Positions 10,458-17,493 of a stretch of DNA of 64,000 nt are shown piece by piece (position 1 is the first letter of the stretch; each line of letters starts with the position of its first letter). The notes under the pieces were generated by a model. It ran no database searches, had not been told where the DNA came from, and saw only the letters and a program-made list of their open reading frames with translations. Position numbers and translations under genes: made by a program. The DNA is from an uncultured Chloroflexia bacterium (lineage in GTDB: Bacteria > Chloroflexota > Limnocylindria > Limnocylindrales > CSP1-4): assembly GCA_963700555.1 (NCBI GenBank), contig CAVOXZ010000011.1, forward strand, positions 98,060 to 162,059, written 5' to 3'.

Positions 10458-11915
10458 CTACCCGCCGAGCTCCCGGTCCGCCGCCGCCACGATCCGGCGC
10501 AGCTCCGCCGCCTCCGTGTCGCCCAGCGGCTCCGGCTGGTGCTCGCGCAGGAGCCTCGCCACCGTGGACCGGGCCACCTCGCGCGCCTCGATCGCCGCCC
10601 CGTCCGGCGGCACGTCGGCCGGTCACGGATGAGAACCGCATCGCGCGCAGCCCCGTGCGGGTGTGCTCCTGGTACAGGAAGTGCCCGCGCGGACCGACCT
10701 CGCGGACGACATCGAGCGCCATCGCCGTCGGGCTGGTGTCGAGCGCCGGCCAGGTTGACCCGGACCCGCTCGTGGAGGTCCGCGTCGAGCACGATCTGCT
10801 CCTGGTAGAGCAGCGTGCACGCGTCGAGCAGTCCCATGCCGCTGCCGGTCTCGGCCCCCAGCAGCGCGCACAGCGTGAGGTTGACCGCCGACTCGGCCGC
10901 CACCTGCCAGCCGGGCTCCGGCGCGTCGGTGCCGAACACGCCCGCCAGCGTCGGCACCCCCCAGGCATGGGCGATCTCCACGCCCGCCCCGTACGCCACC
11001 TCGCCCGACATCGACGTCGACAGGTAGCCGCCCGTCCGCGGGTCCATCACCCCGGTCATCAGCGAGTGGTAGACGGGCGCGCCCGGGTGGACGAGCTGGA
11101 GCAGCGACGAGCGCGGCGATGACCTCCGCGTCGCCCTGGACCAGGGTTCCGGCGATCGTCGCCGGTCCGGTGGTCCCGGCGTTGGCCATGGACATGATCC
11201 CGACCGGGATGCCGGCCTCGGCGAACACGAGCGCCGCCTCCATCCCCTCGTCGTCCTGGGCCAGGGGCGAGATGGCGCAGATGAGCGACGAGAGCGGCGG
11301 CCGGGACCGCAGGACCGCCTCGGACCCGGCCACGACCCGCGCCATCTCGACCGCGGCGCGGGCCATCGATGCCCCGACCACGGTCTCGGTCTGGACGTGC
11401 TTGACGGTGCCCGAGAACGAGGCGAGCAGCTCGTGGACCGGGGCCGTCGCCGGATGGTCCGAGGCGGACACGATGGGCCAGTAGAACCCGACCGCGGGCA
11501 GCGCATCGGCCACCCGGGCCATCGCCTCCACGTCGGCGAGCACGGACGGCCGGACCGCCCCGGTGTCGGGGTCCACCACGCGGATCCCGGAGCCGTCGGT
11601 GGCCACGTGGAACGCCGACCCGTCGAGGAGCAGGTCGAACCCCGGCACGCGGCCGCCGAGCGTGTACGCGCGCGGCGCCCGGGCCATGGCCGCGAGCACG
11701 AGATCCGGCGGCAGCTGGACGATCCGGGTCGCCCGGTCCACCCGCGCGCCGTGTGCCTCGTACAGGTCAAGCACGTGGTCGGACGGCACGTGGATCCCGA
11801 TCGTGTCCAGGATCTCCAGCGTTCCCGCGCGCAGGTCCGCGAGCTGCCCGTCGTCGAGCAGCCGCAGCCGCCGAGCCGAGCGGATCGGCGCCAGCGGCGG
11901 AGTCACGGAGGCCAT
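10458..11915 (-). pseudogene. MttB-superfamily (trimethylamine/quaternary-amine methyltransferase-like) paralog, three frame breaks
   Basis: The N-terminal 270 aa (ORF 10623..11915) are collinear with the upstream paralog. The middle section (LLQLVHPGAPVYHSLMTGVMDPRTGGY...) lies in ORF 10202..11770. ALDVVREVGPRGHFLYQEHTRT lies in ORF 10003..10968. The tail DVPPDGAAIEAREVA...AAADRELGG ends at TAG 10458-10460, in the original frame. Confidence 0.8.
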
Positions 11916-11919
11916 GCCG

Positions 11920-15094: not shown

Positions 15095-16315
15095 CTAGCT
15101 GGACCGGAGCTTCGTCCAGCGCTCCTGGTACTTCTGCAGGTCAGGTCCCAGGTCGAGCAGCTCCTGGAGCTTGTCGATCTGCGCCTTCGCCGGGTTCAAC
15201 GTCGGGTCGTCGAGGATCGCCGGGTCGATGAACGTCTTGGCGGCATCGTTGGGGCCCATGTAGTAGATGTAGTTCGTGTTCGCGGCGCTGATCTCGGCGT
15301 CGAGCAGGTGGTTGATGAACAGGTGGGCCGCGACCGGGTGCGGGGCATTGGCCAGGAGCACCATCGCGTCCGATCCGCGGATCGCACCCTCGGTCGGGAT
15401 CACGTAGACGACATCCTTGCCGCGTTTCGACCAGCTGACCTGGGCCACGTCACCGCTCCACGCATGGCACAGCCAGACGTTGCCGCTCTTCAGGTCGGCG
15501 ATGTCGTCGGCCGTGTACTTGCGCAGGAGCGGCTTCTGCTGCTGCAGGAGGGCCAGGGCTTCGTCCAGCTCCGCGTCGCTGGTGGTGTTCACGCTGTACC
15601 CGAGCCGGATGAGCGCGGCGGCGAAGGTCTCGCGGTAGTCGTCGAGCATTGCGACCTTGCCGCTCCAGCGCTGGTCCCACAGGCTGGACCAGTCCGTCAG
15701 GTTGTCGTTGATCTTGGCCGTGTTGTAGCCGAAGCCCGTGGTCCACCACATGTAGGGCACGGAGTGGGCGTTGCCGGGGTCGTAGGCGGGGTTCTGCCAT
15801 TCCGGTCCGAGGTTGACGAGGTTCGGGATCAGCGACAGGTCCAGGGGCTGGACCAGGTTGCGGGCCAGGAAGCCCGGCACGTCGACGCCCGTGGCGAACG
15901 TGAGGTCGTACCCGCTGTTCCCCGTCGAGATCTTGGTGGTCATCTCGTCGTAGTTGGTGAACACGTCGTAGGTGACCCGGATCCCGTACTTCTCCTCGAA
16001 CGACGGGATCGTGTCCTCGCCGATGTACTCGTCGTAGTTGTAGACGTACAGCTCCCCCTCCGGCTGCGGCGGTTCGGTCGGCTGGGCCGGCGACTCGCCG
16101 GGTGCCATCGTCGCGGCGGGAGGAGCCGTCTCGCCCGGGGCCAGGCTCGGCGGCGGCGTGCCCGGCGTAGCCGGCGCCGCGGTCGCGGCTGCGTCGCTGC
16201 AGGCGGCGAGCAGGCCTCCGGTCGCCGTGACGGCACCCAGGCCGGCCATGCCACGGAGCACGGTCCGGCGGCTGATTGCCTGGAGCGGGGACGTCGATCG
16301 GTGCTGCTCGCTCAT
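15095..16315 (-). CDS. ABC transporter substrate-binding lipoprotein, PotD/PotF (polyamine) type, Tat signal
   Basis: SRRTVLRG twin-arginine motif plus LLAAC lipobox, then a Pro/Ala linker. The body ELYVYNYDEYIGEDTIPSFEEKYGIRVTYDVF...YDLTFATG...SVPYMWWTTGFGYN is typical of PotD-like binding proteins. Confidence 0.85.
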   Translation of the reverse strand: MSEQHRSTSPLQAISRRTVLRGMAGLGAVTATGGLLAACSDAAATAAPATPGTPPPSLAPGETAPPAATMAPGESPAQPTEPPQPEGELYVYNYDEYIGEDTIPSFEEKYGIRVTYDVFTNYDEMTTKISTGNSGYDLTFATGVDVPGFLARNLVQPLDLSLIPNLVNLGPEWQNPAYDPGNAHSVPYMWWTTGFGYNTAKINDNLTDWSSLWDQRWSGKVAMLDDYRETFAAALIRLGYSVNTTSDAELDEALALLQQQKPLLRKYTADDIADLKSGNVWLCHAWSGDVAQVSWSKRGKDVVYVIPTEGAIRGSDAMVLLANAPHPVAAHLFINHLLDAEISAANTNYIYYMGPNDAAKTFIDPAILDDPTLNPAKAQIDKLQELLDLGPDLQKYQERWTKLRSS

Positions 16316-17493
16316 GGGATCTCCTCTTCCCGCCCTCCCGACGTGGGTCGGGGGAGCACCATTGCGTCGGCGGTGCGCCAGCGGATGCGAACGGCGTCGC
16401 CGATGCCGGGTCGTTCGTGACCGCGCGGGACAACCACCGCGAGCGTCACCCCCGCGGTGGTCCTGACCTGGTGGCTGACCGAGACGCCGAGGTAGGCGCT
16501 CTGCAGGACCTCGGCCTCCAGCGAGGCGCTCGCCCCGGCGTCCGCGGTCCCCGCGGCCGCCGTCTCCGCCGTCGAAGCGAGCTCGAGCTCGATGGACTCC
16601 GGTCGGATCGCGACATTCACGGGGTCGCCGACCCGGGCGCTTCCCACGCCGGCGAGGACCGCCTCGCCGGTGGCCAGCCGGACCAGCGCGCCGTCCCCGT
16701 CCACGGATTCGATCGTGCCCGGGAGCAGGTTGGAGGTCCCGATGAACCCGGCCACGAACAGCGTCCGCGGGGCGTCGTAGAGCTCCTCGGGCGTCCCGAG
16801 CTGCTCCACGCGGCCGTGGTTCATGACGGCGATCCGGTCGGACAGCGCCAGCGCCTCCTCCTGGTCGTGGGTCACGTAGATGAACGTGATGCCGACCTCG
16901 AGCTGGACGCGCTTGAGCTCCACCTGGAGCTGGCGGCGCAGCTTGAGGTCCAGCGCGCCCAGCGGCTCGTCCAGCAGGAGGACCTGGGGACGGTTCACGA
17001 GCGCGCGGGCGAGGGCGACGCGCTGCTGCTGGCCGCCCGACAGCTGGTCGGGACGCCGCCGCCCGAAGTCGTCGAGCCGCACCAGCGAGAGCGCGTCGCC
17101 CACCCTCGCCGTGATCTCGGCGGACGGCGTGCGGTGCCGCCGCAGGCCGAACGCGATGTTCTCGAACACCGTCAGGTGCGGGAACAGCGCGTAGCTCTGG
17201 AACACCATGTTGACCGGTCGCTTCTCGGGCGGCTCGGTGGTGATGTCCTGCCCGCCGAGCTCGATCCGGCCCTCGGTCGGCAGCTCGAAGCCGCCGATCA
17301 TGCGCAGGGTGGTCGTCTTGCCGCAGCCGGACGGCCCGAGGAGCGAGAAGAACTCGCCGGCCCGAATGTCGAGGTCCACCCCGTCGACGGCCTTCACCGC
17401 GCCGAACCGCTTGCGCAGCCCGGTGAGGCGGACGTCCGCCGCCGATGCGCTGCGATCCAGGATCGCCGGGTCGAGCCGCTCAGCCTCTGTCAC
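16312..17493 (-). CDS. ABC transporter ATP-binding protein (PotA-like)
   Basis: GTG at 17493 is preceded by AAGGAGG. Walker [10 protein letters not shown], signature [15 protein letters not shown], Walker [16 protein letters not shown] overlap with the binding-protein gene. Confidence 0.85.

Follow-up and report, generated by a model that had tools for sequence, protein, structure and literature searches.

A probable uptake-and-demethylation module in an uncultured Chloroflexota bacterium: a PotABCD-type importer operon with a non-pyrrolysine MttB-superfamily methyltransferase gene

The window analysed here, a stretch of 64,000 nucleotides of contig CAVOXZ010000011.1 (assembly GCA_963700555.1) from the soil-type, Limnocylindria-like genome of an uncultured Chloroflexia bacterium, with a G+C content of 72%, carries on its minus strand an operon comprising the genes of a polyamine-type ABC importer and two genes of the MttB methyltransferase superfamily, mttB-1 and mttB-2, the latter disrupted. 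The operon probably represents, with a probability of about 0.62, a Chloroflexota uptake-and-demethylation module in which the importer and MttB-1 act together with a corrinoid protein encoded elsewhere on a non-acidic amine substrate. In the proposed pathway, a lipid-anchored PotD/PotF-type binding protein and a PotABC-type importer would take up a cationic, non-acidic N-methylated amine, the candidates being methylated di- or polyamines and other quaternary or tertiary amines. From this substrate MttB-1, a predicted TIM barrel, would transfer one methyl group to Co(I) in a small corrinoid protein whose gene lies elsewhere in the genome, and a pterin-binding methyltransferase would hand it on to tetrahydrofolate. 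Its oxidation would plausibly end at the selenocysteine formate dehydrogenase located in the same genomic island in relatives. MttB-2 would be an ancestral partner paralogue, disrupted here and in the course of being lost across the clade.

The operon begins with a PotA-like ABC ATPase gene (16312..17493; 393 residues, GTG start; Pfam ABC_tran 3.5e-37 and TOBE_2 1.7e-12), followed by genes for a Tat-lipoprotein solute-binding protein of the PotD/PotF family (15095..16315; 406 residues; SBP_bac_8 5.5e-30), a PotB/PotH-like permease (14216..15061; 281 residues; BPD_transp_1), and a PotC/PotI-like permease (13410..14216; 268 residues; BPD_transp_1), by mttB-1 (11920..13395; 491 residues), and by the disrupted mttB-2 (10458..11915), whose product is about 50% identical to MttB-1. 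PotA, PotD/PotF, PotB, and PotC are the top-ranking NCBIfam models for the respective transporter genes; the cut-off is passed only by the potA subfamily model TIGR01187 (374 bits against 355.6), PotB (6.8e-68) and PotC (1.1e-65) remaining below theirs. The genes are tightly joined: the stop of the ATPase gene and the start of the binding-protein gene overlap in ATGA (16315-16312), the two permease genes meet in TGATG (14218-14214), an AGGAGG sequence overlapping the permease TAG stop lies 10 nucleotides 5' of the mttB-1 ATG at 13395, and a spacer of 4 nucleotides (11919-11916) separates the mttB-1 stop from the mttB-2 ATG (11915). The original prediction, made from the sequence before this analysis, had read all these junctions correctly; of the six co-directional genes that it listed, the five intact minus-strand ones stand, while the sixth, mttB-2, is frameshifted, so that only one mttB gene is intact. 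Scans for promoters and terminators gave no signal above the shuffled background. The gene order of the operon is more than chance, because it recurs in at least 14 related genomes.

Close homologues of MttB-1 number in the thousands; the best 120 are 67-97% identical, and the named ones among them come from metagenome-assembled genomes (MAGs) of Chloroflexota or "Candidatus Limnocylindrales". A genome scan, in which open reading frames (ORFs) were called, their products clustered, and the cluster representatives annotated by Pfam, yielded 79 related loci; their titles name Chloroflexota MAGs in every case except that of a short contig labelled Planctomycetaceae. The MTTB family comprises 265 genes in 80 loci, in arrays of two to five. 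Sorted by identity, 83 of the genes are of the MttB-1 type (group A) and 50 of the MttB-2 type (group B); additional groups lie at an identity of about 30%. The common core of the loci is an ABC importer with a group-A gene directly downstream, followed by a group-B gene. The importer is of the PotABCD type in Limnocylindria-like genomes (MttB-1 identity 62-97%) and of the Dpp type (SBP_bac_5) in Anaerolineae (58-62%). The coupling of an importer with mttB proposed earlier is supported by synteny, MttB-1 orthologues lying directly downstream of an ABC importer in the 79 loci.

A corrinoid-protein gene is found in or beside 24 of the 79 loci, in 22 of these 24 at a distance of 0-260 nucleotides from an MTTB gene. 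The array-linked protein is of about 215 residues, has the B12-binding and B12-binding_2 domains, and carries the DxHxxG, SxL, and GG elements in the form of the motifs GDIHEIGK, SALLTTT, and VGGAP. Such a gene is present in 8 of the 15 PotABCD-type loci which, unlike the window, are not linked to selenocysteine (sel) genes, and a Pterin_bind methyltransferase gene lies beside the arrays in 7 of the 79 loci. Both occur in L045, where the order is pterin methyltransferase, ATPase, binding protein, permease, MTTB genes of groups A, B, M, and C, and corrinoid protein. Since related modules are repeatedly linked to canonical corrinoid proteins and pterin methyltransferases, a three-component corrinoid-dependent reaction would be the most parsimonious reading for MttB-1 as well. 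The original prediction had left both a distant partner and a different mechanism open; the corrinoid genes found in orthologous modules favour the former.

MttB-1 matches the Pfam family MTTB (PF06253) with 195 bits (E = 1.3e-57) over profile positions 24-437 of 500, and scores 331 bits with TIGR02369, the equivalog model of the pyrrolysine-containing MttB, below the cut-off of 525. Its best sequence matches in the PDB are MttB (7xcl, 8e-51) and MtgB (9yce, 5e-44). The AlphaFold model, made from a shallow alignment of 24 sequences, all at least 66% identical, is of low confidence (mean pLDDT 54.5, pTM 0.65); its ten best Foldseek matches all belong to the MttB superfamily (7xcm, 9yce, 7xcl, 2qne, 7xcn, 4yyc), followed by MtmB, and the scores (E of 1e-17 to 1e-21, TM of about 0.6) agree with the sequence matches. 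The earlier assignment of 11920..13395 to the MttB family therefore holds by profile, and the fold matches of the poor model are consistent with it.

The active-site pocket was mapped by sequence alignment, in which the flanking GxP(S/T)...xD(S/A) motifs are gap-free. The mttB-1 ORF is uninterrupted and, as had been noted earlier, without an in-frame TAG; Pyl334 of Methanosarcina barkeri MttB (7xcl) aligns with Gly336 of MttB-1, and Gly occupies this position in 83 of 83 group-A proteins. In MtgB, Y97 and F356 make cation-pi contacts and R312 and H348 contact the carboxylate of the substrate; R312, which forms a salt bridge to acidic quaternary amines, is conserved in all non-pyrrolysine members of known function (PMC13080624). 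The R312 site is occupied by Met331 in MttB-1 (Leu in 52, Met in 23, and Phe in 8 group-A proteins; Leu in 50 of 50 in group B), and the H348 site falls into a one-residue deletion in all Chloroflexota groups. At the Y97 site MttB-1 has Cys119 (Cys in 83 of 83 group-A proteins, Cys or Ser in group B), and at the F356 site Tyr375 (Tyr or Phe across group A, Cys in group B). MttB-1 is predicted to be neither a true trimethylamine (TMA) methyltransferase nor an MtgB-type betaine enzyme, because it has Gly at the pyrrolysine site, a low TIGR02369 score, and none of the acid-binding residues. At or near pocket positions, groups A and B share the subfamily-specific residues C119 (the MtgB Y97 site), H292, H324, and mostly C334, which precedes the pyrrolysine position by two residues; Thr/Tyr, Tyr, Arg/Gln, and Gly, respectively, stand at these sites in MtgB, in MttB, and in the remaining groups. 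The dN/dS ratio of mttB-1 against the gene of locus L001 is 0.09, indicative of strong purifying selection.

The binding protein gives its best matches to PotD and PotF in both NCBIfam (6.7e-48, 163 bits, and 3.4e-47, 161 bits, against equivalog cut-offs of 582 and 636, which are missed) and the PDB (1e-44 to 1e-47), in line with its earlier description as PotD/PotF-like. The Tat-lipoprotein signal, also called earlier, can be read in its N terminus as the twin-arginine sequence SRRTVL (R16, R17) and the lipobox LAAC (C39), the Pfam TAT_signal match being weak (E = 0.0085). Among the eleven ligand-contact residues of PotF, which we take to be W37, S38, D39, Y40, S85, E185, W244, D247, F276, D278, and Y314, seven are kept or conservatively replaced in the window's protein, namely as E96 (for D39), Y97, E229 (E185), W286 (W244), D289 (D247), D316 (D278), and Y352 (Y314), while four are changed (W37 to Y94, S38 to D95, S85 to T142, and F276 to G314). 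The acidic amine ligands E96, E229, D289, and D316 are thus retained, together with most of the aromatic ones. This retention, together with the loss of the acid-binding Arg and His from MttB-1, points to a substrate that would be cationic and devoid of an acid group.

The importer resembles Escherichia coli PotABCD and PotFGHI in its four-component type-I ABC architecture, including TOBE_2 on the ATPase, and its binding protein, about 35% identical to E. coli PotD/PotF, retains the acidic ligand residues and the majority of the aromatic ones. It differs from them in that all components except the ATPase, which passes its subfamily model, stay under the NCBIfam equivalog cut-offs, in the replacement of W37 by Tyr and of F276 (PotD W255) by Gly, in the Tat-lipoprotein anchor with a Pro/Ala/Thr-rich linker of about 45 residues, and in sharing an operon with genes for methyltransferases. 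The importer cassette is mosaic. Between the window and L005 the binding proteins have an identity of only 61%, although the MttB-1 proteins of the two are 96% identical, whereas L006, L007, and L014 have binding proteins with 95, 90, and 87% identity to the window's and MttB-1 proteins with 94, 87, and 82%, respectively; the G+C content falls to 0.65 across 14-16 kb of the window. This suggests that the importer alleles were swapped by recombination independently of mttB.

The frame of mttB-2 that starts at the ATG 11915 meets a TGA at 10625-10623, and the last 160 or so residues of this frame are not MttB-like, while its first 272 residues score 120 bits against Pfam MTTB. In tblastn, the homology to MttB-1 passes through frames +2, +3, +1, and +2. 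DNA alignment with the intact orthologues of L001 and L002 (484 residues; 94 and 87% nucleotide identity, respectively) locates three one-nucleotide insertions near 11106, 10744, and 10607, none of them in a homopolymer run. When the three bases are removed, the protein is 96% identical to that of L001 with a dN/dS of 0.13, comparable with that of mttB-1, so the disruption would be either very recent or an assembly artefact. Two further genes of the window are frameshifted: a selD-like gene of the AIRS family (2606..3652, minus strand), split by three frameshifts (frames -1, -2, -3, and -1 in tblastn with the AIRS proteins of L001 and L002), and an ABC_tran gene (3719-4723, plus strand; frames 2, 3, and 2 against the intact L001 and L002 orthologues). 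Together with mttB-2 they hold eight frameshifts, and 11 other compared genes are intact. In favour of real decay, group B is intact in eight of the 15 closest genomes, a truncated and frameshifted remnant in one, and absent from six; in addition, frameshift-split genes otherwise number only two among about 130 group-A and group-B genes of the 79 loci. In favour of an artefact, frameshifts also affect the other two genes, all three genes regain their original frame, and many related assemblies appear to be long-read MAGs, judging by their "MFD" isolate names. The clustered frameshifts are either real local decay, which would disable selenophosphate synthesis, or consensus errors. An obligate MttB-1/MttB-2 heteromer was considered and rejected, as many loci have a group-A gene but none of group B.

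The nearest known counterpart in an aerobe is the glycine-betaine demethylase of Ruegeria pomeroyi. There the MtgB proteins (pfam06253) require MtgC and MtgD, whose genes lie elsewhere and which also serve in methionine synthesis as a split methionine synthase; a single genome can have as many as seven ORFs of pfam06253 (PMC12478193). The earlier premise that such enzymes are found in anaerobes with adjacent partners is therefore out of date, and an unlinked partner in an aerobe is not anomalous. The likeness extends to a non-pyrrolysine pfam06253 enzyme in an aerobe, several paralogues per genome, the position of the corrinoid protein and pterin methyltransferase away from mtgB, a layout that the Chloroflexota module would share, and the expected entry of the methyl group into tetrahydrofolate-linked C1 oxidation (PMC12478193). 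The two systems differ in their hosts (Alphaproteobacteria and Chloroflexota), in the low identity of MttB-1 to the solved MtgB (about 27%) and its missing carboxylate-binding Arg and His, and in transport, since mttB-1 is translationally coupled to a PotABCD-type importer instead of being served by a BCCT/OpuD transporter. MtgB/MtgC/MtgA of Desulfitobacterium hafniense and MtcB/MtpB/MtyB/MthB of Eubacterium limosum share with MttB-1 the lack of pyrrolysine and the MttB-superfamily TIM barrel, which is predicted for MttB-1 (PMC13080624, PMC8604678, PMC12155760), and their three-part layout is matched in related Chloroflexota loci by a substrate methyltransferase, a corrinoid protein of about 215 residues, and a pterin methyltransferase. 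Those systems belong to anaerobes, act on acidic quaternary amines, and conserve R312, whereas MttB-1 has Met in its place, lacks H348, and has Cys for Y97; the Chloroflexota genes, moreover, form tandem A-B(-C/D/E/H) arrays behind an importer. The best match by sequence and, on the low-confidence model, by fold is M. barkeri MttB-MttC (PDB 7xcl, 7xcn; PMC9842639), which likewise has no Arg at the R312 site. MttB-1 differs from it in Gly336 at the pyrrolysine site, the TIGR02369 score below cut-off, and the absence of an adjacent mttC.

Several points weigh against a corrinoid protein encoded elsewhere and a non-acidic amine substrate. Neither a B12-binding nor a Pterin_bind domain turned up when about 50 genes called in the 64-kb window were scanned with Pfam, no tblastn match in the window to four corrinoid proteins and three pterin methyltransferases of related loci had an E value below 0.02, and Rfam, whose sole match in the window is a selenocysteine tRNA, detected no cobalamin riboswitch there. 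The missing partner reported by the original prediction for about 8 kb on either side thus extends to the whole 64 kb, and neither a corrinoid nor a pterin-methyltransferase gene lies within 10 kb on either side of the operon in any of the 17 sel-linked loci that form the window's clade. The earlier note had further allowed that relatives might routinely carry an adjacent corrinoid gene merely lost or misassembled here; this describes 24 of the 62 other loci, among them the eight with a PotABCD-type importer, but none of the 17 sel-linked ones (Fisher p = 0.001), and the lack of a neighbouring corrinoid gene is a clade-level feature, not an assembly defect. Nor were homologues of the array-linked corrinoid protein at 72% identity or more found on contigs of the sel-linked clade, one of which is a chromosome of 3.62 Mb, among the best 120 of more than 8000 matches obtained with one profile of array-linked proteins and the single L022 protein. 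A RamA-type gene was not seen in the window or the sel-linked loci, where no search was aimed at it. The pocket mapping rests on sequence alignment, the three-dimensional model being poor. Without pyrrolysine, a tertiary or secondary amine would be a poor methyl donor, and the substrate class proposed here is a guess; we know of no biochemically characterised MttB-1 orthologue.

The same absence of corrinoid genes from the sel-linked loci, and of close orthologues from their contigs, speaks for a route in which MttB-1 of this clade has no dedicated corrinoid protein and transfers the methyl group directly to tetrahydrofolate or a thiol, or else borrows a MetH-type cobalamin domain; the pocket residues C119, H292, H324, and mostly C334, absent from MtgB and MttB, could fit such chemistry. 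We regard it as unlikely, since group-A orthologues of 62-78% identity lie in operons with canonical corrinoid proteins, which makes the subfamily look corrinoid-dependent, and unlinked partners are known in Ruegeria (PMC12478193); the homologue searches, covering the best 120 clusters, cannot show absence, and a cobalamin-independent MttB-family enzyme was not found in the literature searched. If true, this route, by which a non-acidic, polyamine-like methylamine would be demethylated in a way new to the superfamily, would extend MttB chemistry past pyrrolysine-activated TMA and acidic quaternary amines. A somewhat lower rank is given to a conventional enzyme of the MtgB type that would demethylate glycine betaine or a different quaternary amine with an acid group (carnitine, proline betaine, gamma-butyrobetaine). 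That all characterised non-pyrrolysine members use such substrates (PMC13080624), that dimethylglycine-dehydrogenase-like and DAO-family genes lie nearby in relatives, and that database labels and earlier MAG surveys class these genes with mttB/mtgB (PMC11264602) would agree with it, but none of the 133 proteins of groups A and B has R312 or H348, the identity of MttB-1 to MtgB is no higher than that to MttB, at about 27%, and the importer is of the PotD/PotF type with acidic ligands, not a ProX/OpuAC/BCCT betaine system.

Just as improbable as the betaine enzyme is a module decaying or uncoupled in this strain, where a plain polyamine importer would stand beside mttB genes that are relics without a current joint function. 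The three frameshifts in mttB-2, those in the nearby selD-like and ABC_tran genes, the absence or truncation of group B in seven of 15 close relatives, and the mosaic importer cassette, exchanged independently of mttB-1, are what such decay would leave; against it, neither mttB-1 nor any of the four importer genes is broken and their junctions are translationally coupled, the dN/dS of mttB-1 speaks for strong purifying selection, and the importer-then-group-A order is kept over 58-97% identity and two importer types. The most improbable is a genuine TMA methyltransferase, as automatic annotations have it. The JGI names of homologues, the best PDB match to M. barkeri MttB, and the R312 site lacking Arg as in MttB would be its credentials, but the gene has no UAG codon for pyrrolysine, Gly stands at that position throughout group A, and the TIGR02369 score of 331 bits is far from 525, and pyrrolysine is considered necessary to activate TMA (PMC9842639). 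The corrinoid-dependent module with an unlinked partner remains the preferred explanation.

On the evidence at hand, this module represents a new subfamily within an enzyme system that was known before, not a new mechanism or chemistry: corrinoid-dependent demethylation by the MttB family in aerobes with unlinked partners is already established. A literature search on MttB with putrescine and substrate-binding protein returned no paper, and several features appear to be undescribed in the searchable literature, namely the A-B tandem behind a PotD or Dpp importer, the loss of the acid-binding Arg across the subfamily, the clade-wide separation from the corrinoid gene, and the embedding in a selenocysteine/formate dehydrogenase island. 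In MAGs from soil and sediment, the MttB family supplies some of the "methylotrophy" genes annotated most often; in one survey 17% of the MAGs had mttB homologues, Anaerolineae and Limnocylindria being noted among the carriers (PMC11264602). With 83 group-A and 50 group-B genes in 79 loci and thousands of metagenomic homologues, the Chloroflexota subfamily is large and tied to polyamine or peptide/opine-type importers, which makes it a target in the search for new methylamine substrates in aerobic soils and in the correction of "trimethylamine methyltransferase" annotations. The clade also illustrates a likely unlinked-partner arrangement outside Proteobacteria.

Divergently from the operon, on the plus strand (17668..21598), lie the selA, selB, and MobA-like genes (Pfam SelA 3e-112, GTP_EFTU with SelB-wing_3, and NTP_transf_3, respectively), in an arrangement identical in L001-L004. 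In these four loci the order is MobA-like, selB, and selA (divergent); ATPase, binding protein, two permeases, mttB-1, and mttB-2; a DAO-family gene or a gene for a 167-residue protein; selD; a second pair of MTTB genes in inverted orientation, belonging to groups C and F; and a molybdopterin formate dehydrogenase. The formate dehydrogenase of relatives has an in-frame TGA (NIDSCNRT*HAPSVAGL in L003, 18920-20851). The window holds selA, selB, the MobA-like gene, the frameshifted selD, and the selenocysteine tRNA gene (5451..5549, plus strand; Rfam RF01852, 72.3 bits; tRNA-SeC with anticodon tca in ARAGORN), and its left edge ends just before the site of the second MTTB pair in L001. Judging from gene content, namely the DAO-family oxidoreductase in the operon, the dimethylglycine-dehydrogenase-like genes, and the formate dehydrogenase with its in-frame TGA in relatives, the island is likely to serve C1 metabolism, the methyl groups of the imported amine being oxidised via formate. 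A selenocysteine-containing MttB, considered because of the flanking sel genes, was rejected: in relatives no stop codon breaks the MTTB ORFs, and it is the neighbouring formate dehydrogenase that has the in-frame TGA.

In many relatives (L008-L014, L017; e.g., L003 12941-14149), the gene of a DAO-family FAD oxidoreductase, which is ThiO/sarcosine-oxidase-like but reaches none of the NCBIfam cut-offs, either comes right after mttB-1 or overlaps mttB-2 at its end. The place of this gene is taken in the window, L001, and L002 by the gene of a conserved hypothetical protein of 167 residues without a Pfam or NCBIfam match (window 9470..9973, minus strand, 3' of mttB-2), 95 and 92% identical to its same-position counterparts in L001 and L002, respectively; whether it belongs to the operon is uncertain. 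The segment 5551-9247 of the window is an insertion in comparison with L001 and L002, where its flanks are nearly adjacent, and comprises genes for an S51 peptidase and a PadR regulator, an ORF of 262 codons, and about 1.5 kb without a confident gene call. In Anaerolineae-type Dpp loci (L047, L061, L072, L080, L083), saccharopine-dehydrogenase-family, MarR, SAM-methyltransferase-like, and arginine-deiminase/DDAH-like genes are repeated neighbours, and some loci of this type also have AhcY with a pfkB-family kinase, or a dimethylglycine-dehydrogenase-like gene; these neighbours are possible substrate clues for the other MTTB groups. Further along the window, the photolyase gene (34167-35597) and the oxidative pentose-phosphate genes (G6PD, OpcA, 6PGL, 6PGD) named by the original prediction are present, together with a transketolase ORF (49383-52604, minus strand). 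The latter is of 1073 residues as called; its Pfam transketolase domains begin at residue 391, and the N-terminal 390 or so residues without a listed domain may reflect a fusion or an over-extended start.

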